Shown: positions 1,823-26,368 of the stretch, piece after piece | Layout of the letters: every line of letters starts with the position of its first letter | Numbering within the stretch: the first letter of the stretch is position 1 | NCBI GenBank assembly: GCA_031367195.1 | Contig: JANLPL010000250.1 | Coordinates: 12,569-76,568 of the forward strand | Direction of reading: 5' to 3' | Source of the DNA: Bradyrhizobium sp. | GTDB lineage: Bacteria; Pseudomonadota; Alphaproteobacteria; Rhizobiales; Beijerinckiaceae | Length of the DNA: 64,000 bases | Notes under the pieces: model-generated | Told to the model about the DNA's origin: nothing | What the model saw: only the letters and a program-made list of their open reading frames with translations | Database searches by the model: none | Made by a program: the position numbers and the translations under genes

Positions 1823-3523
1823 ATGTCCGCAGCCATGAGCGACGGGGCGGTGAACACGGGGACGGCGACAGCGGGGCCAGCCGATTGCCCGCGCTCGGCA
1901 TGGGCGGTGTTCGAAAGCCGGCCCTTCACGCGGATCTGGGGCGCGACCCAACTTGGCCTCGCCGGCATCGCCATGTCGGACGCCGCCTCCGTCTGGCTGA
2001 TGACGAGCCTGGACGCCGACCCGCGCTCGGTGTCGCTGGTGCAGGTCGCCGCCTTCCTGCCGATGTTCCTCCTCACGCTGCCGGCCGGCGCGCTGGTCGA
2101 TATCGTCGAGCCGCGCCGCTTCCTGCTGGCGCTGGAGAGCTTTATCACCGCGCTGGTCGTCGTGTTCGCGCTGATGGTGACATTCAATCTGGCGACGGTC
2201 GGCTCGCTGCTTACGCTCACCTTTCTGCTCAGCGCGGCTTGGTCGGTCGCCGCGCCCGCCTGGGCGGCGTTGACGCCCCTGCTGGTGCCGCGCGACGACC
2301 TCGAAGGCGCGGCGGCCGCCAACACCATCGGATACAGCGCCAGCCGCGCCATCGGCCCCGCGCTCAGCGGCCGGCTGATCGCCTCGCTCGGCGTCGCCGC
2401 GCCGTTCTGGGGCTTTGCCCTAGCCAACGCCGTCAGCTTGGTCGCGCTGCTGATGTGGAAACCCGCGCCGCATCGCCCGCGCGATCTGCCGGCCGAGCGG
2501 CTCATCAGCGCGGTGCGCGCCGGCCTGCGCCATTCCCTCTACAATCCGCATTTGCGCGCGACTTTGGTGCGCACGCTCGCGGTCTTTCCCTTCGCGGCGG
2601 CCTTCCTGGCGCTGCTGCCGCTGGTCGCGCGCAGCCAGATGACCTCGGGGCCGCAAATCTATGGCCTCCTGCTTGCGACGGCGAGCGTGGGCGCGGCGGC
2701 GGGTTCCGTCGTGCGGCCCTATATCAAGATCCGACTTGGGCCGGACCGCTACGTCGCCGTCGGCACGATCGCGCTGGCGACCGCCTTGACGCTGTTCGGC
2801 CTGTGCCACTCGTGGCCGTTCGCCTTCCTGGCCGCTTTTCTTGCCGGCGCGGGCTGGACCATGGTGCTGGCCAGCCTCAGCCTGTCGGCGCAGATCGCGC
2901 TGCCGGATTGGGTGCGCGGGCGCGGACTGGCGGTGTTCCTCACCACGGTGTTCGGCGCGATTGTGGTCGGAAGCTTCGTCTGGGGCTGGACTGCGGCGCA
3001 TCTGGGCCTGCCGGCGGCGCATTTCCTCGCCGCCGCTGGAGCTATCGCCTTCATTCCGCTGACCTGGCGGTGGCGCCTGCAAACCGCCGAGGGCGTCGAT
3101 CTGTCGCCGTCGATGCACTGGCAGGCGCCGATTCTGGCGCACGAGGTGCGGGACGACAGCGGCCCGGTGCTCGTCACCCTGAGCTACAAGCTGGCCGGCG
3201 ACGACCCCGATCGCTTCCTCGACGCGATCGAGGAGATCGGCAGGCAGCGGCGGCGCGACGGCGCCTATGCCTGGGGCGTTTTCGCCGATGTCGCGGAGAA
3301 TAACGTCTATCTCGAAACCTTCCTGATCGGCTCCTGGCTGGAGGCGCGCTACCTGCGCCAACGCGTCACCAAATCGGACCGCGAGCGGGAGGACCTCGTC
3401 AAGTCAATGCTCACCGAGCCGGCGACCCTGACGCTGATGCTCGCCTCCGACTCGCCCAAAACAGGGGAAGAGACGCAGCCCGACATCAATTTCTACTTCA
3501 CCACGTCTGAAACGACCGCCTGA
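1823..3523 (+). CDS. MFS transporter (transmembrane secretion effector-like) with C-terminal soluble domain
   Basis: About 12 hydrophobic helices, PAGALVDIVEPRR loop motif, C-terminal RRRDGAYAWG...YLETFLIGSW domain; start chosen at ATG 1823 (1835 possible). Confidence 0.88.
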   Translation: MSAAMSDGAVNTGTATAGPADCPRSAWAVFESRPFTRIWGATQLGLAGIAMSDAASVWLMTSLDADPRSVSLVQVAAFLPMFLLTLPAGALVDIVEPRRFLLALESFITALVVVFALMVTFNLATVGSLLTLTFLLSAAWSVAAPAWAALTPLLVPRDDLEGAAAANTIGYSASRAIGPALSGRLIASLGVAAPFWGFALANAVSLVALLMWKPAPHRPRDLPAERLISAVRAGLRHSLYNPHLRATLVRTLAVFPFAAAFLALLPLVARSQMTSGPQIYGLLLATASVGAAAGSVVRPYIKIRLGPDRYVAVGTIALATALTLFGLCHSWPFAFLAAFLAGAGWTMVLASLSLSAQIALPDWVRGRGLAVFLTTVFGAIVVGSFVWGWTAAHLGLPAAHFLAAAGAIAFIPLTWRWRLQTAEGVDLSPSMHWQAPILAHEVRDDSGPVLVTLSYKLAGDDPDRFLDAIEEIGRQRRRDGAYAWGVFADVAENNVYLETFLIGSWLEARYLRQRVTKSDREREDLVKSMLTEPATLTLMLASDSPKTGEETQPDINFYFTTSETTA

Positions 3524-4079
3524 CCTTGTCGCGGAATTCCTCGCGCGTCGCGGCGTCGGCTTTGTCCATGCCATAGGCCGCGAGATAGTCGAGCGGGGCG
3601 TCGGGGGCGACTAGCGGATGCAGATTGTGCCGCACGAACCGGCGCGGCAGGTCGCCGACCCGTTTCGTGCGCTCGCGATCCGCGCCATAGAGCACGACCG
3701 CGGCGAGCCGGCGCACATTATGCAGGCGCGGATAGAACACGCCTTCCTCGACCTCGAACACGACGCCGCGCAGAAAAACCCGGTCGAAATAGCCTTTGAG
3801 AATGGCGGGCGGCCCATCGTGCCAGACCGGAAACACGAAGGCCAGCGCCTCCGCCGCCATCAGACTGCGGGCATAATGTTCGACGCCAATGCGGTTGGCC
3901 GGAGCCTCGAGATATTTGCGATAAGTCGCGCGCGGCAAAACCGGGTCGAAGTCTTCCGCGTATAGATCGCAGGCGTCGACGAAATAGCCCCGCCCGACCA
4001 GGGTGGCGCAAACCTCGCGATACAGCGCCGAGGCGAAGCTGTCAGGAGAGGGGTGGGCGTGGACGACGAGCGCGCGCAA
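3498..4079 (-). CDS. Flavodoxin-like NAD(P)H dehydrogenase (quinone), Flavodoxin_2 family
   Basis: ALVVHAHPSPDSF start, FPVWHDGPPAILKGYFDRVF motif; TTG start. Confidence 0.9.
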   Translation of the reverse strand: MRALVVHAHPSPDSFASALYREVCATLVGRGYFVDACDLYAEDFDPVLPRATYRKYLEAPANRIGVEHYARSLMAAEALAFVFPVWHDGPPAILKGYFDRVFLRGVVFEVEEGVFYPRLHNVRRLAAVVLYGADRERTKRVGDLPRRFVRHNLHPLVAPDAPLDYLAAYGMDKADAATREEFRDKVRRSFQTW

Positions 4080-4121
4080 TTTTCCCGCGGGGATGGTTTA
4101 GGGGCTGGAAGGATTTATGGC

Positions 4122-4154
4122 GCCAATTCCTTTAAGCCAATTCCTTTAAGCAAT
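4122..4154. repeat. 14-bp perfect tandem repeat GCCAATTCCTTTAA x2 plus partial third copy in a divergent intergenic region
   Basis: Read directly: 4122-4135, 4136-4149, then GCAAT. Confidence 0.9.
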
Positions 4155-4261
4155 CTCATCGGGCGGCGAGGCCGCCGGCCGTTCAAAATCGGCCCGGGAT
4201 TGCATAACCCTGCGAGAGCCTCCATATCTTTGCAACGGATGTCAGCCGCGAACGAGCCCCC

Positions 4262-4993
4262 ATGTTCATGAACGTTGCCGAGGCCGCGCGGCGGCGGGTG
4301 CTGTCCAAGCTCGGTCTCGACCGGCTCGTGACGGCGGAATATCTCGACATCGCCGCCGGCCATCGCGCCCATGCCGAGCTGCAACGCACGCCGGCGACGT
4401 TCCACATCGACGGCCTGACCATCGAGGCGCCGGGCGGCGTATATCATCCCACGCCCGAATCCAGCTCGATGCTGTTCATCCGCAACATTCAGGCGCTTGC
4501 CGCGCCGTCCTTTCCGCGCATGTTGGAAATCGGCACGGGTTGCGGCGCTATCGCGCTGTTTGTAGCCCATCGCTGGGGCGGCTATGTCGTGGCGACCGAC
4601 ATTTCCGCGACGACGTTGGCCTCCGCTGAGGCCAACGCCCGCCGCAACGGCCTGTCGCCGCGCCTCGTCCAGTCCGATCTGTTCAAGTCGGTGGGGGAGG
4701 GCGATTTCGACCTCGTCGTATTCAACACGCCGCTGATCGACAAGGCGCCCGAGGACGATCTGGAGCGCCAGAGCCTGTGCGATCCCGGCGGCCGACTGCT
4801 GCGCGCTTATCTCGACGGGCTCGCCGGCGCGCTGGCGCCGGGCGGCGTCGCGCTGTTTGGAATCTGCTGCAACACGGCCTATCAACGGATCGAGGAGGTC
4901 GATCTCGATTTCGAGATCGTCGGGCTGGAGCTGATCGGCAAGGGGTTTTGGCGCGCGATTGTGGCCGCGCGACGCGTCACGCCGCCGGGCTGA
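4262..4993 (+). CDS. HemK/PrmC-like class I SAM-dependent methyltransferase
   Basis: LEIGTGCGAIA motif I, VATDIS, SDLF, DLVVFNTPL (variant of NPPY). Confidence 0.85.
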   Translation: MFMNVAEAARRRVLSKLGLDRLVTAEYLDIAAGHRAHAELQRTPATFHIDGLTIEAPGGVYHPTPESSSMLFIRNIQALAAPSFPRMLEIGTGCGAIALFVAHRWGGYVVATDISATTLASAEANARRNGLSPRLVQSDLFKSVGEGDFDLVVFNTPLIDKAPEDDLERQSLCDPGGRLLRAYLDGLAGALAPGGVALFGICCNTAYQRIEEVDLDFEIVGLELIGKGFWRAIVAARRVTPPG

Positions 4994-6617
4994 AATGCTT
5001 TCGCCCGCGCTGCGGCGCGATGAGATGCGTGACGACGGGCGTTTCGACCAATAGCTGGCGTACGCGCTCCTCGATGCGCCGGTCGGCGTTGGTCACGCGC
5101 TCGTAGAGATGCATCAGCTCCAACCAGCTCTCGATCAGGAAGGTTTCGGTATAGCGACCTTCCGTCGCGAGTTCTTCGAATATGCCCCAGGCATAGGCCC
5201 CGTCACGCCGGCGCTCGTGGCCGATCTCGCGCATGGCGCTTAAGAATTCATCGCGATGACCGGGGTCGATGCAATAGCGGATTGTCACCAGCGCCGGTCC
5301 CTGACTCCAGCCGACATCGAATGCGACGCGCGGCGAGCGCCAGTGCAGCGAGGGGGCGAGGTCGGCGCCGAGGCCGGATTGCAGCCGCGAGCCCCAGCTC
5401 ATCGGAATCGCGAGCAGCGCGCCGGCCGCCGCCACATAAAGCGCGAGATCGACGCCGCGCAGCGCCGCGATCTGGCCCCAAAGCGCGCTGGCGAAGGTCG
5501 AGGCGCCGAAAATCGCGGTGAGAAAGATCGCCAGCCCCCGGCCGCGCACCCAGTTCGGCAGCGAAAGCTGAGCCGAGACATAAAGTGTCGAGATAATGAG
5601 CGTCCACATCGCGCCCGCGATCACGCAAGCCGCCAGCGCGCTGACCGGATCGCGCGCCAGCGCGAACATTGCCAGCGCGACCGCCGTGCCGACGCTCGCG
5701 AAAGCCACCAGCGCATCCGGCCCAAGCCAGGCCTTCAGCCGCGACAGCGTGGCCGAGCCGACGATGGCGCCGACGCCGATGGCGGCGAGCAGCAAGCCGT
5801 AAAACGCCGCGCCCTGCGCCGGTTGCGCGCGCGCGATCAGCGGTAGCAGCGCCCAATAGGCGCTGGCGAAGGGAAAGAAGGCGAGCGTTCGCACCAGCGT
5901 CGCGTGGAGATGGTGATTATGCCGCGCGTGGCGCACGCCGGTGCGGATCGCGCTCATGAAGCGCTCGGCCGGCAAACCGCTGGCGATGCGTCGGGGCGGT
6001 CGCCACCAGATCAGCGCGCCCAGGATCAACACATCGCTGATCGCGTTGATCCAGAACGGCGCCGACACCCCGACCCAGGCGATGACAAGGCCGCCGACCG
6101 CCGGACCGACCGCGCGGCTGACGTTATAGCCCGCCGTATTGGCCGCTACCGCCGCGTCGAGATCGCGCGGCGGCACAAGCAGAGGCGCGATGGAAACCCA
6201 CGCCGGCGCCGCCAGAGCGCCGCCGACGCCGAGCAGAAAAGTCGCGCCCAGCAACAGTTCGGGCGTCGCGAACCCCATCGACACCGCCGCCGCGAAAGTC
6301 GCGGAAACGACGAGAATCGCAATATTGACGCCGATCAGCAGGCGCCGCGCATCGACCAGATCGGTCAACGTCCCCGCGGGAATGGTGAACAGAAACAACG
6401 GCAGGCTGGTCGCGGTCTGGATCAGCGCGACCGTCATCGGTTCCCGGCTCATATTGGCCATGTACCAGCCGGTGGCGGTGTCGAACATGGCGATGCCGAC
6501 GTTCGAGAGCGTGCTCGCCGCCCAGATCACCGCGAAGGCGAGGCTGGCGAACGCCCCCCAGCGTGACTCCGGCTCCCCCTCACGGGGCTGCGGCGGTTTT
6601 GTCTCCCGGCTCAACAC
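4977..6617 (-). CDS. MFS transporter, paralog of 1823-3523
   Basis: PAGTLTDLVDARR, LPAERFMSAIRTG, LPNWVRGRGLA, RRRDGAYAWG shared with first MFS. Confidence 0.88.
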   Translation of the reverse strand: MLSRETKPPQPREGEPESRWGAFASLAFAVIWAASTLSNVGIAMFDTATGWYMANMSREPMTVALIQTATSLPLFLFTIPAGTLTDLVDARRLLIGVNIAILVVSATFAAAVSMGFATPELLLGATFLLGVGGALAAPAWVSIAPLLVPPRDLDAAVAANTAGYNVSRAVGPAVGGLVIAWVGVSAPFWINAISDVLILGALIWWRPPRRIASGLPAERFMSAIRTGVRHARHNHHLHATLVRTLAFFPFASAYWALLPLIARAQPAQGAAFYGLLLAAIGVGAIVGSATLSRLKAWLGPDALVAFASVGTAVALAMFALARDPVSALAACVIAGAMWTLIISTLYVSAQLSLPNWVRGRGLAIFLTAIFGASTFASALWGQIAALRGVDLALYVAAAGALLAIPMSWGSRLQSGLGADLAPSLHWRSPRVAFDVGWSQGPALVTIRYCIDPGHRDEFLSAMREIGHERRRDGAYAWGIFEELATEGRYTETFLIESWLELMHLYERVTNADRRIEERVRQLLVETPVVTHLIAPQRGRKHFSPAA

Positions 6618-6668
6618 CCTCTCCGCGACATGACCCCTCCCTCTGATATAGGGCGCTGATGTCGCGTT

Positions 6669-7307
6669 TCACCCCCGCGCCGCCAAAGCCGCCGCCACCT
6701 GCGCGCGCGACCAGACGCAGAGTTCGCGCTGCGGATAGGGGAAAACATAGTCGGGAATGCGGTAGAGCACCTCGCGCGGCAGCCGATAGGGCGGCTTGTA
6801 GAGGTCGATCAGCCGGAAGCCGCCGGGCGCGATGTCGGAATTGTCGAAATCGCTGACATTGAGATGCGTCGTCGTCATCAAGAAGCCGATGCGCGAGCGG
6901 CAAAAGCCTTCGAGCGCCGACCGGATCGCCGCCTCCGGCAGATGGAACAGGCAGTCGCGGCAGAACCAGAGATCGGCGTCGGGCAGCGGGTCGCTGGCGA
7001 TGTCGCACCGGACAAAGCGCCGTGTTTCGTCGCCATAGCGGGTCCGGTTCGCCTCGACCAACGGCGCCACGATGTCGCCGCCGATATAGCTGAAACCTTC
7101 AGGGAATTCGACCGCGCGCATCCAGTTGAAATCGCCGCAGGGCGCGTCGAACATCGACGCGACGCGGAACGCGCGCAGAAATTTCGCCAGTTCGTGGCGC
7201 AGGTTGTAGGTATAGTCCAGGGTCGAGCCGTCGCCGCTGAGGCTCTCGTCGTTGCCCCAGTAGTTCGACGCGGCGTGGCCGGCGAACACGGATTGCAAGT
7301 CTTTCAC
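6669..7307 (-). CDS. Class I SAM-dependent methyltransferase
   Basis: ESLSGDGS, MFDAPCGDFNWM, YIGGDIV, CRDCLFHL; GTG start 7307 overlaps upstream stop. Confidence 0.82.
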   Translation of the reverse strand: MKDLQSVFAGHAASNYWGNDESLSGDGSTLDYTYNLRHELAKFLRAFRVASMFDAPCGDFNWMRAVEFPEGFSYIGGDIVAPLVEANRTRYGDETRRFVRCDIASDPLPDADLWFCRDCLFHLPEAAIRSALEGFCRSRIGFLMTTTHLNVSDFDNSDIAPGGFRLIDLYKPPYRLPREVLYRIPDYVFPYPQRELCVWSRAQVAAALAARG

Positions 7308-19235: not shown

Positions 19236-21530
19236 ATGTCCGCCGAAAACTCCGCCCGCCTGTCGATCTCGGAGCGCGCGCGCCCCCGTGCGCCCGTGTC
19301 CTATCTCGATTCGCTGAACCCCGAGCAGCGCCGCGCTGTCGAGGCGCTCGACGGACCGGTGCTGGTGCTGGCCGGCGCCGGCGTCGGCAAAACCCGGGTT
19401 CTGACCACGCGCATCGCGCATATGCTGAGACTGGGCCGCGCGCGCGGCCAGGAGATTCTGGCCGTCACCTTCACCAACAAGGCCGCGCGCGAAATGCGCG
19501 AGCGCATCGAGGCGCTGACGGGCGTGCCCGACGGAATGCCGTGGATGGGCACGTTCCACTCCATCGGCGCCAAGATCCTGCGCCGCCATGCCGAGCTGGT
19601 CGGCCTGAAACCCAATTTCACCATTCTCGACACCGACGACCAGTTGCGCCTGCTCAAGCAACTCCTCAAGGCCGAGAACATCGACGAGAAACGCTGGCCG
19701 GCGCGTGCGCTTGCGGGTTGCATCGACGATTGGAAGAACCGGGGCCTAAGTCCCGCCGACATCGGGGCGCGCGAAGCGGCGGCGTTCGCCAACGGCCTCG
19801 GGGCCAAACTCTATAAGGCCTATCAGGCGCGGCTGAAGACGCTCAACGCCGTCGATTTCGGCGATCTGTTGCTGGAGGCGCTGCGGCTGTTTCGCGACAA
19901 TTCCGACGTGTTGGCGACCTATCAGGAGCGCTTCCGCTACATTCTGGTTGACGAATATCAGGACACCAACGTCGTCCAATATCTGTGGCTGCGTCTGCTC
20001 GCGCAGAAGCGGCGCAATCTTTGCTGCGTCGGCGACGACGACCAGTCGATCTATGGCTGGCGCGGCGCCGAGGTCGAGAACATCCTCGGCTTCGAGCGCG
20101 ATTTTCCCGACGCGACGGTGATCCGACTGGAGCGCAACTATCGCTCCACCGGCCACATTCTCGGCCTCGCTTCCGGCCTGATCGCGCACAACCGCAAGCG
20201 CCTCGGCAAGACCCTGTTCACCGGCGCCGAGCCTGGGCCCAAGCCGACCGTGCGCGGCGTGCAGGATTCGCGCGGGGAAGCGCGCGAGATCGGCGACGAG
20301 ATCGAGGCTGAGCAGTCAAAGGGCGCCTCGCTCGCCGACATGGCGATCCTGGTGCGCGCCTCGTTCCAGATGCGCGAATTCGAGGAGCGCTTCATCGAGA
20401 TCGGCGTGCCCTATCGCGTGATCGGCGGCCCGCGTTTCTACGAACGCGCCGAAATCCGCGACGCGCTCGCCTATCTCCGCATCGTCGCCCAGCCCGACGA
20501 CGATCTCGCCTTCGAGCGCATCTACAACACCCCGCGCCGGGGTCTTGGCGAGGCGACGCTGGCGATCCTGCATGGCGCCGGCCGCGCCGTGTCCGTCTCG
20601 CTGACGATGGCTGCCCGCCGCATGATCGAGACCGACGAGTTGAAGGCCAGGCCGCGCCAGATCTTACGCGATCTCCTGGCCGATTTTGAGCGCTGGCGCG
20701 CGCGCGCCGCCGTTGTCTCGGTCGAGGAGCTCGCCCGGCTCGTCGTCGAGGAGAGCGGCCTGATCCAGATGTGGAAGGCGGAGAAGACGCCGGATGCCGA
20801 GGGGAGGCTGGAAAACCTCAAGGAACTCGTGCGCTCGATGGCGGACTTTCCGACCCTCGACGCCTTCCTCGAACATGTCGCGCTGGTCACCGACGCCGAG
20901 CGCGACGATGCCGGCCCGCGCGTGTCGATCATGACCCTGCACGCCGCCAAGGGTCTCGAATTCGATGTCGTGTTCCTGCCCGGCTGGGAGGAGGGACTGT
21001 TTCCGCACCAGCGCGCGGTCGATGAAAGCGGGCTGGCCGGGCTCGAAGAGGAGCGTCGCCTCGCCTATGTCGGCATCACGCGCGCGCGACGCCGCATCGC
21101 GATCTATTTCGCCTCCAACCGGCGCGTGCGCGGCCTGTGGCAATCCTCGCCGCCGTCGCGCTTTCTCGACGAACTGCCGGAGGCGCATGTCGCGGTGGTG
21201 GAGCGCGCCGATCCGCCGACCTACGGCTATGCCTCGCGCTTCGACGAAGGCGTGTTTTCGGGGCGCCGCTACGACACGCCCGGCTGGAAACGCGCGCAGG
21301 AGCGCGCGCAGTCGCCGGGCTATCAGCGGCCCGCGCCGCCGCGCGTGATCGAGGGGCGCGCGCTCGCGCTGGCCACGGAGACATCCGCCTATCGCCCCGG
21401 CGAGCGCGTGTTTCACCAGAAATTCGGCCCCGGCTTGGTCTGCGGCGTCGACGGCGCCAAATTGACGGTGGAATTCGATCACGCAGGTCGCAAAATGGTG
21501 CTCGACAGCTTTTTGTCCCGCGAGGGCTGA
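19236..21530 (+). CDS. uvrD: UvrD/PcrA superfamily 1 DNA helicase
   Basis: AGAGVGKT, VTFTNKAA, VDEYQDTN, VGDDDQSIYGWRGA, NYRS, TLHAAKGLEF, EERRLAYVGITRA. Confidence 0.97.
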   Translation: MSAENSARLSISERARPRAPVSYLDSLNPEQRRAVEALDGPVLVLAGAGVGKTRVLTTRIAHMLRLGRARGQEILAVTFTNKAAREMRERIEALTGVPDGMPWMGTFHSIGAKILRRHAELVGLKPNFTILDTDDQLRLLKQLLKAENIDEKRWPARALAGCIDDWKNRGLSPADIGAREAAAFANGLGAKLYKAYQARLKTLNAVDFGDLLLEALRLFRDNSDVLATYQERFRYILVDEYQDTNVVQYLWLRLLAQKRRNLCCVGDDDQSIYGWRGAEVENILGFERDFPDATVIRLERNYRSTGHILGLASGLIAHNRKRLGKTLFTGAEPGPKPTVRGVQDSRGEAREIGDEIEAEQSKGASLADMAILVRASFQMREFEERFIEIGVPYRVIGGPRFYERAEIRDALAYLRIVAQPDDDLAFERIYNTPRRGLGEATLAILHGAGRAVSVSLTMAARRMIETDELKARPRQILRDLLADFERWRARAAVVSVEELARLVVEESGLIQMWKAEKTPDAEGRLENLKELVRSMADFPTLDAFLEHVALVTDAERDDAGPRVSIMTLHAAKGLEFDVVFLPGWEEGLFPHQRAVDESGLAGLEEERRLAYVGITRARRRIAIYFASNRRVRGLWQSSPPSRFLDELPEAHVAVVERADPPTYGYASRFDEGVFSGRRYDTPGWKRAQERAQSPGYQRPAPPRVIEGRALALATETSAYRPGERVFHQKFGPGLVCGVDGAKLTVEFDHAGRKMVLDSFLSREG

Positions 21531-21560
21531 GCGGCGCGCAGCGTAAAACAAGGGGAAAAC

Positions 21561-22220
21561 ATGGCTGTCGCGATTCACAAGCCGCCGCCTTCGGGCCTGA
21601 GCGCCAAGGCGCTGGCGCCGTGGCGAAATATCCCGGTGTCGATCGCCGTCGATCTTGCGCGCGACATCGGCCAGATCGACCCCGCGATCCGCCCGCTGCG
21701 CCCGGCGGGCCAGCAGCCGCCGCTATTCGGCCGCGCCGTCACCGCTTTGTGCGAGCCGCCCGATTTCGGCGCCGTGCTGCACGCGCTCGACTTCGTCGGC
21801 AAGGGCGACGTTTTGGTGATCGCCGCCTATGGAATGCGCGAATTCGCGATGATTGGCGAAATCCTGTGCGGCCATCTCCACGCCAAGGGCGCGGCGGGCG
21901 TCGTCTGCGACGGCGCCATCCGCGACGTGGCTGTAGTGGCCGGCCTGCCTGATTTCTCCGTATTCACCCGCTGGATCACGCCGCGCGGCCCGACGGCGGC
22001 CGAGCGCGGGGCGGTGAATATTCCGGTGATCGTAGGCGGAACGCTGGTGACGCCGGGCGACCTGATTCTGGGCGACGACGACGGCCTCATCGCGCTGTCG
22101 CCGGAGAATGCGCGCGCGAGGCTAGCAGCAGCGCAGGCCAAAGTCGGCAAGGAGGCGGAGTGGATCGCCGCGCTTGCCTCGGGCAAGAGCGTCAAGGAGG
22201 TGTTTGGGCTGAAGAGCTAA
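21561..22220 (+). CDS. RraA family / HMG aldolase-like protein
   Basis: GRAVTA, GDVLVI, AMIGEI, VVCDGAIRDV, VTPGDLILGDDDG. Confidence 0.88.
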   Translation: MAVAIHKPPPSGLSAKALAPWRNIPVSIAVDLARDIGQIDPAIRPLRPAGQQPPLFGRAVTALCEPPDFGAVLHALDFVGKGDVLVIAAYGMREFAMIGEILCGHLHAKGAAGVVCDGAIRDVAVVAGLPDFSVFTRWITPRGPTAAERGAVNIPVIVGGTLVTPGDLILGDDDGLIALSPENARARLAAAQAKVGKEAEWIAALASGKSVKEVFGLKS

Positions 22221-22382
22221 GGGACACGCCTCGATCTCGGCTGGGCCCGCCGCCGATCAATCTATAACAACTCGGCCGAACAGATTTTCGACATGCCTGC
22301 TATTTGTGTTCTCGACTCCTAAAATCGCTTCTGCTAGCACTCAATAAGTTCTTGCATCATCTCAGCGAATTTGGGGGGGTAG

Positions 22383-22940
22383 ATGGGGAGCACCGGCACA
22401 GCTGTTGCGCGCTTGGCCTTCATGACGGAGTTGCTGCGTCCGTTGAGGGGCATCGTAGGTCCGCCGGTGCCCATCGTTCCGTTTCACAACTGGGATTACT
22501 ACTACATCACGCAGAACCTGACTTGGGACCCCGACACCGCTGACAAGGAAAACTACGAATCTGTGACGGCACCCAGATATTTCGTCACCGATCTCGCCAG
22601 CATTCCCGAGCCGTTCTGGTCGGCCTTGCCGCCGACCGGGCCCTACAGCTATCCCGCGATCATCCACGATTGGATGTATTGGACCCAGCCGCATGCGAGA
22701 TCGGGCGACGACGACCGCGCCTATGCCGACGGCGTTCTGAAACTGGCGATGGCGGAGTTGAAGGTTCCGGCTCTGAAGGCGGTCGCGATCTACGAAGCCG
22801 TTCGCGCGTTCGGCGCCGGCGCCTGGGCGGGCAATGCGGATGCGCGCGGGGGGGGCGAGAAGCGGGTGTTGAAGAGAGTGCCGACCGACGCCCGGACGAC
22901 CTGGGCGGAATGGAAGCAGAACCTCGATAATTTTGCCTGA
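22383..22940 (+). CDS. DUF1353-like protein
   Basis: VTAPRYFVTDLASIPEPFW and PAIIHDWMY match the DUF1353 pattern (F.TD.ASIP...HD.LY); ADGVL..AM downstream. Confidence 0.78.
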   Translation: MGSTGTAVARLAFMTELLRPLRGIVGPPVPIVPFHNWDYYYITQNLTWDPDTADKENYESVTAPRYFVTDLASIPEPFWSALPPTGPYSYPAIIHDWMYWTQPHARSGDDDRAYADGVLKLAMAELKVPALKAVAIYEAVRAFGAGAWAGNADARGGGEKRVLKRVPTDARTTWAEWKQNLDNFA

Positions 22941-22966
22941 ATTCGTTTTCGCGGGGAGGGCCAGGG

Positions 22967-24751
22967 ATGGTCGGCTGGTTCGGGAAATCGCTGGGATCGC
23001 GGCGCAAGTTCGCATTGGTGATCGGCAACAGCGCCTATGCCGGCGACGAACGGCTGCAAAGCCCCGCACGTGACATTGAGGGGGTAAAGAAGGCGCTGGA
23101 AGCGCTGGGTTTTGGCGTCACCCATCATCCCGATCTCGATGTTGCGGGGCTGAACGATGTCATCCGCAAGGCGGTCGATAACCTCAAGAGCGAGCGTGCG
23201 GACGTCGGTCTGTTCTATTATTCCGGCCACGGGATGCAGATCGCTGGTCGCAATTTTCTTGTGCCCGTGGGTTTCGAAACCTTGAAAGACCCGCACGAAG
23301 ACGCGCTGATCGATCTTCAGAAGGTGACATACGAATTCGCGGAACATTCGGCGACGACGCTTGTCTTCCTTGACGCCTGCCGCACGAGCCCGAATTTTAC
23401 GGCCAAAAGCCAAGCGATGACAACGAAGGCGATGGCGCTTCCCAATTTCGACGCCAAGGGTTTCAGCGTCGATGGCAAGCCGGTGGGGCTGGCGGGAATG
23501 CGCTCGAACAACAATTCCTACATCGCATTCGCCGCCGCGCCGGGGCAGGCCGCGCGCGAGGGCGAGCCCGGTCGGATGAGCCCTTTTACAAACGCTCTCG
23601 TCGCGCATATCCGCGCCGTCGATCTGCCGCTCGACATGATCATGAACCGCGTCAATCACGACGTGTTCGAAACAACCAGGGGCGCGCAGTCGCCTTGGAT
23701 GAATTCGTCACTTGGTCGGCCGTTCTTCTTCACACCGGGATCGTTGCTGATGCTGATGGGCAACCTCATGGCGCTGGCCTCGCTCGGCGCAACGACGGTG
23801 ATCTACACTCTCGTGCTCGTCGGCGGCGCGCAATATGCGACCGGCCTCATCGCCTTTACGCTGGCGCTGATTTCCTTGACCACGCTCCTGCTCGGCGCGC
23901 AGCGCGCCTATGGGCGGCTGCGCGGCGTGCGTCCGGACGCCGTCGTCGACATCCTTTCTCACTTTCTCAGCAGCGCACGCCGTGGCGTGTTCGGCGGTTT
24001 CATCGGCGCCATCGGCGCGGCGTTCGCGATTGGCTGGCCATACATGCGGGCTTGGGAGGAGTCGTGCCGCAGCAAGGTCGTTTGCACGTCGCTCCCCGAA
24101 GAGTGGGAGAAGCCCAAGGACTTCGGCGCGTTGCTGGTCGAATTCGCTGTCGCCTGCTCCCTCGTAGCTATCGTGCTCGGCTTCTGCGCGCTATTCGCCG
24201 CCAAGCTCGGTTTCGCCAAAGGACGCTGGCGTTTCGACCCTCCGCAGTCGTGGACGACCTCACTCCGTCGCGGCGCGCTCGGCGGCGCGGTCGCCGGCGT
24301 CCTAGCGGCGCCGCCGCTGACGCTCTATTTCGGCCGCTTCCTAAGGCCGATCCTATCGCCCGATCTGCTGGCGCCGGGCGGCGTCATTGGGGCTGCGATT
24401 CTCGCTTTCGCGATCGTCAACTACGATTTCGAACAACTGACCCTGCGACGCGTCATCGCAGGCGTGCTCGGCGCTTTCGGCGGCGTGCTCGGCGGGGCGG
24501 TGCTCGGCGGCGCGGTGTTCGGCGTTCTCTACAAGCTCGGCGTCGTCGCTTACGTGACCGACGCGATTCAATATGAGTTCTATCATTCGAAGCTGCGCAT
24601 GATCCCGTGGACGTGGATCTACGGCTTTACCGCTGGAATCGTGCTCGGCTCCGTTATCGCGCTCGCCGAGGTTCTCACCGAACGGTGGTCGAGCGCAGCC
24701 GCGCGCAATGACGACGACGCAGCGCCCGCGTCAACTCCCTCGCCTGGCTAA
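22967..24751 (+). CDS. Caspase-like (peptidase C14) protease fused to C-terminal multi-pass membrane domain
   Basis: FALVIGNSAY, catalytic His in FYYSGHG, catalytic Cys in VFLDACR, AFAAAPG, SPFT..L, QSPW; about 8 hydrophobic segments after residue ~260; no signal peptide. Confidence 0.9.
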   Translation: MVGWFGKSLGSRRKFALVIGNSAYAGDERLQSPARDIEGVKKALEALGFGVTHHPDLDVAGLNDVIRKAVDNLKSERADVGLFYYSGHGMQIAGRNFLVPVGFETLKDPHEDALIDLQKVTYEFAEHSATTLVFLDACRTSPNFTAKSQAMTTKAMALPNFDAKGFSVDGKPVGLAGMRSNNNSYIAFAAAPGQAAREGEPGRMSPFTNALVAHIRAVDLPLDMIMNRVNHDVFETTRGAQSPWMNSSLGRPFFFTPGSLLMLMGNLMALASLGATTVIYTLVLVGGAQYATGLIAFTLALISLTTLLLGAQRAYGRLRGVRPDAVVDILSHFLSSARRGVFGGFIGAIGAAFAIGWPYMRAWEESCRSKVVCTSLPEEWEKPKDFGALLVEFAVACSLVAIVLGFCALFAAKLGFAKGRWRFDPPQSWTTSLRRGALGGAVAGVLAAPPLTLYFGRFLRPILSPDLLAPGGVIGAAILAFAIVNYDFEQLTLRRVIAGVLGAFGGVLGGAVLGGAVFGVLYKLGVVAYVTDAIQYEFYHSKLRMIPWTWIYGFTAGIVLGSVIALAEVLTERWSSAAARNDDDAAPASTPSPG

Positions 24752-24765
24752 CCAAGAGCCGCCCC

Positions 24766-26368
<1,603 letters not shown>

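Follow-up and report, generated by a model that had tools for sequence, protein, structure and literature searches.

A DUF1353 gene and a membrane-anchored caspase-like protease gene as a co-inherited accessory pair: a candidate protease-gated phospholipase module

The proteolytic licensing of death effectors such as gasdermins, pore formers and nucleases is a recently recognised logic that is common to bacterial and eukaryotic immunity. That it is a widespread logic of defence is established in a recent survey (Evans et al. 2025 preprint, PMC12642450), in which the effectors include gasdermin, Pepco, EACC1, MBL and alpha/beta-hydrolase types. The proteases of these modules carry fusions to a range of sensors, among them FGE, WD-type repeats and peptidoglycan-binding domains, and the characterised protease-effector pairs act by activation (PMC12642450). 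Proteins of the DUF1353 or phospholipase A2 (PLA2) type are outside the ten effector families surveyed, and the words 'phospholipase', 'PLA2' and 'DUF' are absent from the text of that paper. Here, we describe a DUF1353 gene that is followed by a gene for a caspase-like protease with a membrane domain, in a stretch of 64,000 nt from Bradyrhizobium sp. (assembly GCA_031367195.1, contig JANLPL010000250.1, positions 12,569 to 76,568; hereafter the window, whose own positions are used throughout). No description of a DUF1353-protease pairing was found in the literature searched.

The DUF1353 family counts over 6000 proteins, and TtaP, a member encoded in a typhoid-toxin islet, is a PLA2 by assay with a His/Asp dyad formed by H70, D71 and D85 (PMC11525133). 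Its PLA2 activity depends on the Asp that is equivalent to the catalytic Asp of the window protein (PMC11525133). TtaP is distantly related to group XIV secreted PLA2s (1LWB, 4AUP), which carry removable N-terminal sequences, and this link was made via HHpred on the three-helix core (PMC11525133). In this study, we show that the DUF1353 gene and the protease gene are a conserved, co-inherited accessory unit of soil bacteria. We tentatively propose, with slightly less than even confidence, that the pair is a protease-gated PLA2 zymogen, that is, a membrane-destroying cell-death module of the protease-effector type.

The pair as a co-inherited accessory unit

In the window, the DUF1353 gene and the protease gene have the same orientation and are separated by 26 nt. 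They lie between an RraA-like gene upstream (21561-22220, Pfam) and a class-I fumarase gene on the minus strand downstream, and the stop codons of fumarase and protease are 14 nt apart. A preliminary description, made from the letters of the stretch alone, had already read this layout as a two-gene system of a DUF1353-like protein and a membrane-anchored caspase-like protease with an SGHG His and a DAC Cys. The layout is confirmed by the open reading frame (ORF) listing and Pfam; the two identities agree with Pfam, AlphaFold2 (AF2) models and hydropathy, and the dyad is present as His88 and Cys138, both invariant in homologues.

In a scan of one genome per species in 185,579 species, full-length homologues of the protease were found in only about seven species, all of them Alphaproteobacteria. 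A DUF1353 gene is directly upstream, at a distance of about 20-45 nt, in 11 of the 13 loci where the protease was found, and the flanking genes differ each time. The 11 paired loci are the window, Bradyrhizobium LjRoot220, Mesorhizobium B263B2A, M. comanense, three metagenome-assembled genomes (MAGs), a transposon-rich contig, two metagenome contigs and a conjugative plasmid of Rhizobium ruizarguesonis. The protease stands without a DUF1353 partner in L020 and in the divergent L026, and three further pairs were reached via DUF1353. Across the 11 loci, the pairwise identities of the two proteins correlate (r=0.92, Mantel p=2e-4). Chance falls far short of explaining the pairing, and the rare co-occurrence that would speak against a two-gene system is not what we see.

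Some copies have their own local variations. An alphaproteobacterial MAG (L024, 2171-6794) has the DUF1353 gene followed by two tandem caspase-membrane genes (2797-4671 and 4992-6794). On Rhizobium plasmids and related contigs (L190, 2872-7671; L187, 2050-6680), peptidoglycan-binding or VanY-glucosaminidase genes precede the pair, and L190 has a CHAT protease gene nearby. At L020 (2174-7743), which lies among amidase and M74 genes, the place of DUF1353 is taken by an unknown 305-aa protein that has no Pfam match.

The unit is accessory. Neither a full-length protease homologue nor the DUF1353 gene was found in 36 genomes of the same genus. We rejected a housekeeping role on the grounds that not one of these genomes has the genes. 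The nearest relative with conserved flanks (uvrD 89%, rraA 79% and fumarase 85-91% identity) carries a different insert of 3.7 kb between rraA and fumarase (L185, G011:C16, 3800-7900), which holds one gene for a YoeB-family toxin, one for a protein of 691 aa that combines ALTTAQ repeats with a protease domain of the calpain family (C2), and one that is glyoxalase-like. Since the nearest relative carries a different insert there, the rraA/fumarase site is a variable hot spot. The locus, whose presence in close relatives the preliminary description had left to be checked, is thus not core. As a side observation, the hot spot has acquired a different cysteine protease in G011. No direct or inverted repeats marking an insertion were found flanking the pair.

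The partnership of DUF1353 with proteases is wider than the window family. In a metagenome scan, we examined 80 loci of more than 435 DUF1353 relatives, and the only recurrent Pfam families among 138 neighbour genes were Peptidase_C14 (15), CHAT (7), Patatin (4) and TPR/WD40. Loci were taken as informative when at least 700 nt were available on both sides (n=31). A clan-CD protease is directly adjacent to DUF1353 in 15 of these 31, and in 16 when L141 is included, whose neighbour matches CHAT with 22.8 bits, just under the Pfam cut-off of 24. Counting L141, the protease-linked loci make up 16 of 23 in the clade whose DUF1353 protein has an N-terminal helix, versus 0 of 8 in the clade that has a plain Sec signal and no helix. 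The unknown neighbours in L127 and L130 had been considered as hidden caspases, and this was ruled out by hhalign against the caspase family.

The partner proteases are of several architectures, namely caspase alone, caspase-WD40, caspase-FGE, Y_Y_Y-caspase and TPR-CHAT. The TPR-CHAT protease is beside a distant DUF1353 relative in L102, and a caspase-FGE-sulfatase and a type I restriction-modification (R-M) system are beside DUF1353 in L104. Most of the metagenomic pairs consist of a DUF1353 protein with a Tat signal and a caspase or CHAT protease with a Sec signal, while both proteins are signal-less in the window family; in every arrangement, the two partners are in the same predicted compartment. 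The periplasmic pairing is the commoner form (L107, L114, L128, L132, L137, L142, L147 and L157), with the caspase domain directly after the Sec signal.

Several loci deserve further mention. In L104 (699-7581), the DUF1353 protein has 308 aa, including a long extension at its N-terminus. Its gene is flanked on one side by an HSP70-like gene, which two unknown genes precede, and on the other by the caspase-FGE-sulfatase gene next to the type I R-M system. DnaK-like fusions are mentioned in protease-effector modules (PMC12642450), and L104 may represent a conflict system of larger size. In the DUF1353 relatives P0139 and P0141, no NCBIfam model matches the long N-terminus, and a fusion to EACC1 is therefore unsupported. 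Patatin-like phospholipase genes are beside the DUF1353 subfamily in L100 (3447-4400), L187 (1-1680), L181 (4636-5535) and L182 (1516-2415), so that two unrelated lipase types, patatin-like and DUF1353, cluster together (4 of the 138 neighbours).

The surroundings of the window pair also differ in base composition. One further feature precedes the two genes:

22221..22382, plus strand: upstream intergenic region of 162 nt and 52% GC, presumed promoter/leader of the two-gene unit

The GC content of this spacer compares with 65.8% for the window, and GC at third codon positions (GC3) is 0.79 in the DUF1353 gene and 0.77 in the protease gene versus 0.83-0.89 in six neighbouring genes. The AT-rich upstream stretch and the A/T-ending codons of the preliminary description hold up, and the codon bias is real and modest. 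There is no sigma-70 consensus on the plus strand upstream of the DUF1353 gene, and no Rfam match within 21500-25500.

Two observations concern reading frames. The class-I fumarase (24766-26368, minus strand) is made of two overlapping ORFs in different frames, which match the Fumerase N-terminal domain (25340-26368) and Fumerase_C (24766-25455). In the relative G011, tblastn finds the N- and C-terminal matches in a single frame, and because of this the window fumarase is taken to be frameshifted, either by an assembly error or as a pseudogene. Over 2 kb, the window is matched at 99.95% identity by a contig of another MAG, Methylocapsa sp. GFS_7720 (L027 1146-1699 versus window 22383-22940), a match that suggests which organism the window is from. 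The DUF1353 gene of this MAG differs by an indel of 1 nt in a run of CCC at about codon 30. That the relatives conserve the N-terminal helix indicates that the frame of the window is the correct one.

The two predicted proteins

The features of the DUF1353 gene are as follows:

22383..22940, plus strand: DUF1353 (PF07087) phospholipase-A2-like protein, 185 aa, no signal peptide (Pfam, phrog_1158, AF2)
22392..22448, plus strand: N-terminal amphipathic helix (residues 4-18, with an F13-M14 motif; helix from AF2) and linker to Arg22, a candidate pro-peptide with a putative cleavage site
22665..22730, plus strand: predicted catalytic residues His95-Asp96 (22665-22670) and Asp116 (22728-22730), invariant in alignments
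22830..22937, plus strand: subfamily-specific C-terminal tail, residues 150-185, beyond the Pfam domain, conserved in the alignment and modelled with a predicted local distance difference test score (pLDDT) >94

The protein matches PF07087 with an E-value of 1.2e-19 (70.2 bits versus a cut-off of 22.5) and phrog_1158 with 1.5e-27, and its AF2 model has a mean pLDDT of 90.5. Across 25 aligned relatives of the window protein, H95, D96, D116 and the motif F-V-T-D-L-A-S-I-P are invariant, and the three residues are also invariant in 47 further sequences. Apart from the window copy, every member has a spacing of 15 from the catalytic His to the Asp, as do H70 and D85 of TtaP. The catalytic equivalence to TtaP was judged from published residue numbers, motif and spacing, not from a direct alignment. 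The C-terminal tail follows the pattern N-A..R..G-E-K-R-V-L-K-R-x-P..D...T-W..W-K, in which Arg161 is invariant. The DUF1353 protein of the window family has no disulfides.

What the protease-linked DUF1353 proteins share is an N-terminal helix. A helix with the motif [W/F]-M-x-x-[W/A], followed by K or R, is found in 31 of 32 protease-linked homologues and is absent from the unlinked clade with a Sec signal. In the window protein, the basic residue after the helix is Arg22.

The second gene has the following features:

22967..24751, plus strand: caspase-like protease of 594 aa with a fused polytopic membrane domain (Pfam, homologue alignment, AF2)
23003..23728, plus strand: Peptidase_C14 domain, residues 13-254, predicted cytoplasmic (Pfam, invariant residues; nearest structure MALT1)
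23228-23230, 23372-23374 and 23378-23380, plus strand: protease residues His88, Asp136 and Cys138
23393-23485, plus strand: disordered inter-subunit linker, residues 143-173 (pLDDT <50)
23738..24691, plus strand: 9-helix glycine-zipper membrane domain, residues 258-575 (AF2 helices, hydropathy, conservation)

The protease matches PF00656 (Peptidase_C14) with an E-value of 1.9e-33 (116.5 bits versus a cut-off of 21.4). Among 5.8 billion proteins, it has 20 full-length homologues with 34-41% identity and 94-95% coverage. In the alignment of 21 full-length homologues, His88 (YSGHG), Asp136 and Cys138 (LDACR) are invariant, and conservation extends through the entire C-terminal half. The AF2 model (mean pLDDT 78) has a caspase fold at residues 14-250 and nine long helices at residues 262-575, within the C-terminal part 258-594. 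No signal peptide is present, and a cytoplasmic location of the caspase domain follows from hydropathy and the positive-inside rule. Among solved structures, the closest relative is MALT1, an Arg-specific paracaspase (phmmer 3.5e-8; Foldseek E-value 1.9e-11, 24% identity), and the model matches caspases-3, -7, -9 and -11 in Foldseek too. The closeness to MALT1 and the conserved Asp136 suggest that the protease is probably specific for Arg or Lys.

The glycine-rich membrane domain of about 330 aa contains GxxxG zippers and the motifs Y-x-R-L-R-G (315-320) and N-x-D-x-E (485-489). It belongs to no Pfam family, and nothing in the PDB aligns to it. An exhaustive HMMER search with the membrane half alone returned only 80 clusters among 1.84 billion representative proteins, and nearly all of these are proteins of 560-600 aa with the same architecture, or fragments; a few are membrane-domain-only proteins of about 320-355 aa. 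Judged by these searches, the membrane domain is rare and undescribed.

Proposed mechanism and rival explanations

How the two proteins might act together is suggested by their predicted features. The DUF1353 protein would be a latent PLA2-type enzyme kept in the cytoplasm. The protease domain, which resembles paracaspases and metacaspases and is probably Arg/Lys-specific, would be held on the cytoplasmic face of the inner membrane by the 9-helix glycine-zipper domain, a possible sensor or scaffold. Upon some membrane-associated trigger, the DUF1353 protein would be cut by the protease, most likely after Arg22, so that the N-terminal helix is removed as a pro-peptide. The freed enzyme could then hydrolyse the phospholipids of the cell's own membrane and cause death or lysis of the abortive-infection or conflict type. 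The basic residue after the helix would be the likely P1 site, because K or R is conserved there in almost all protease-linked homologues and the protease is closest to the Arg-specific MALT1 with the Asp of D-x-C. A suicide role is favoured because a cytoplasmic PLA2 could reach only the inner membrane of its own cell. Which partner controls the other, where the cut falls, what triggers it and which biological purpose it serves are what we infer here, whereas PLA2 activity and the protease-effector logic come from the literature.

If the proposal is true, a lipid-hydrolysing effector of the PLA2 type joins the described effector classes, and the large DUF1353 family gains its first physiological context and regulatory mechanism. 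It would also define a new polytopic membrane domain on a caspase, and provide a compact two-gene system, in which catalytic mutants are clear controls, for studying how bacterial caspase-like proteases are switched on. A bolder form of the proposal, which we consider somewhat unlikely, is that DUF1353 proteins with the N-terminal helix and their clan-CD proteases are a widespread undescribed class of death or immune systems, in which an Arg/Lys-specific caspase-like protease licenses a PLA2 zymogen by removal of the helix. The window family would then be a cytoplasmic re-invention, whose domain of nine transmembrane (TM) helices would sense perturbation of the membrane, such as phage entry or holin action, and fire the protease.

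We would like to point out the observations that weigh against the proposal of a protease-gated PLA2 zymogen. The genomic settings are mostly metabolic, mobile-element or cell-wall-hydrolase genes, not defence islands; the enrichment in such islands that the preliminary description had put forward for checking came out as a weak link only, as the defence-type neighbours are singletons and just a single locus (L104) adjoins a type I R-M system. A periplasmic location, which most relatives have, is unusual for a suicide effector, and in about 30% of the helix clade no protease can be recognised next to the DUF1353 gene. Unique to the window copy is an insertion of six residues (ARSGDD) between the catalytic His and Asp, which makes their spacing 21. 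The PLA2 assignment derives from family membership, motifs and one paper on a distant member; in a Foldseek comparison of the DUF1353 model with the PDB, no match had an E-value <1 and no PLA2 fold came up, and the PDB profile search with this protein found nothing significant, PLA2 or otherwise. Conservation of the C-terminal tail does not differ between protease-linked and unlinked DUF1353 proteins, and for lack of a linkage-specific signal the tail was dropped as a candidate cleavage site in favour of the N-terminal K/R. PADLOC and NCBIfam identify no system for the pair: in PADLOC-DB v2, the DUF1353 protein has no match and the protease only a generic, partial 'caspase' match (PDLC02987, 1.4e-10), and to NF047832 (EACC1-associated caspase) the protease scores 48.1 bits versus a cut-off of 140.

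The same biochemistry could serve another purpose under another trigger. Our main rival explanation, which we judge to be fairly unlikely, is a phage- or plasmid-derived envelope-demolition module of the lysis type that lets particles, toxins or DNA out of the cell or brings about regulated autolysis. It draws on the facts that DUF1353 is common in phages (phrog_1158; 78 phage records), that TtaP adjoins a muramidase in its toxin-release islet (PMC11525133) and that the pair is carried by insertion sequence (IS) elements and conjugative plasmids. The known phages have only distant homologues of the DUF1353 core (30-39% identity), however, and these are without the N-terminal helix, while the partner proteases carry repeat domains of the sensor type. 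Peptidoglycan-binding or hydrolase genes directly precede the pair in L187 and L190 and also occur in the pair-less L020, and an M15 peptidase is nearby in L101; yet only three relatives (L101, L187 and L190) have cell-wall hydrolase or binding genes near the pair. In the window, in Bradyrhizobium and in Mesorhizobium, the pair is a lone two-gene insert, and its surroundings contain no genes for phage functions, holin, endolysin or particles. The window pair, flanked by no phage, endolysin or holin genes, does not have the setting of a phage lysis cassette, a prophage late region with an endolysin and a small holin. That most relatives are exported via Tat or Sec signals, as extracytoplasmic enzymes would be, agrees with a non-lethal envelope or lipid function, where the protease would mature or localise a lipid-modifying enzyme for membrane remodelling, signalling lipids or antagonism of other microbes, or where DUF1353, instead of being cleaved by the protease, would serve it as a cofactor or adaptor. 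Patatin-type lipases recur nearby, removal of a pro-peptide is the ordinary maturation of secreted PLA2s, and no defence context is clear. We nevertheless think such a function unlikely, since both proteins of the window family are cytoplasmic, where an active PLA2 reaches only the cell's own inner membrane, since the patchy and mobile distribution of the pair is typical of conflict genes, and since the variable site carries a toxin gene in a relative.

Two other explanations change the roles of the partners. Control could be inverted, as in toxin-antitoxin systems, so that the protease continuously degrades or restrains the phospholipase and its loss or inhibition, for example by a phage, frees the toxin. 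The data on pairing and co-divergence fit this equally, and the order of the genes, with the toxin-like gene first and a short gap, fits a stoichiometry set by co-translation. We find this very unlikely, as the characterised protease-effector pairs work by activation (PMC12642450) and a single conserved K/R in the linker suggests one defined cut rather than wholesale degradation. The least probable explanation in our view, and a highly improbable one, is that the membrane domain itself acts as effector: the caspase-TM protein would process itself and so set free a pore-former of the glycine-zipper type, with DUF1353 as an accessory. The GxxxG zippers and conserved polar motifs in the nine helices, the disordered linker at 143-173 and the few proteins that consist of the membrane domain only (about 320-355 aa) would suit such a role. 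Those short matches may be gene fragments, and DUF1353 pairs equally with soluble and periplasmic proteases that are without this domain, so that the conserved core is the protease and DUF1353.

The interpretation in the preliminary description, a compact defence, programmed-death or signalling module with a protease that is activated at the membrane and processes itself or its partner, is partly supported. Its statement that the pairing is not a named system agrees with the generic partial caspase match in PADLOC and the score far below the cut-off of the EACC1-type model. It had placed DUF1353 genes in phage and accessory DNA: the accessory part applies here, the phage part only to distant core homologues. 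Going beyond it, the PLA2 activity of TtaP would give the pair a concrete effector, and the partnership extends to caspase-WD40, caspase-FGE and TPR-CHAT proteases.

Comparison with known systems

TtaP is of the same Pfam family as the window protein, has the same H-D...D motif with the same spacing (as found in the window's relatives), and likewise has no signal peptide. It differs in being a protein of 125 aa without a protease partner, whereas the window protein has 185 aa with the N-terminal helix, the C-terminal tail and the insertion of six residues. The protease shares with MALT1, metacaspases and orthocaspases (C14, clan CD) the His/Cys dyad and an Asp two residues before the Cys, as in the Arg-specific members. 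Unlike them, it has no death, Ig or prodomain and has a unique C-terminal polytopic membrane domain.

With the secreted group XIV PLA2s of S. violaceoruber and T. borchii, which have removable N-terminal sequences, and with pancreatic pro-PLA2, which is cut by trypsin, the DUF1353 protein would share the logic that an Arg/Lys-specific protease takes off an N-terminal pro-peptide ending in a basic residue and so activates a PLA2 of the His/Asp type. In contrast to secreted PLA2 zymogens, the protease of the window family is dedicated, gene-linked and cytoplasmic, and its DUF1353 protein is without disulfides and has no fold match in Foldseek. CapV of the cyclic oligonucleotide-based antiphage signalling system (CBASS) resembles the proposed module in that hydrolysis of membrane phospholipids is the killing step of abortive infection, but it has a patatin fold and is activated by a cyclic nucleotide, not by a protease (PMC12480259).

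The closest likeness is to the protease-effector defence modules. In both, a gene for a clan-CD protease adjoins a gene for a small potential death effector and is co-inherited with it, the partner proteases, among the relatives in the DUF1353 partnership, carry variable domains of the sensor type (WD40, TPR and FGE-sulfatase), and control is proposed to be by site-specific cleavage. The pair differs from those modules in that its effector is DUF1353/PLA2-like, that the window protease has a novel 9-TM domain, and that most relatives are periplasmic. What would be new here, within protease-effector modules, is the class of the effector and the membrane domain.

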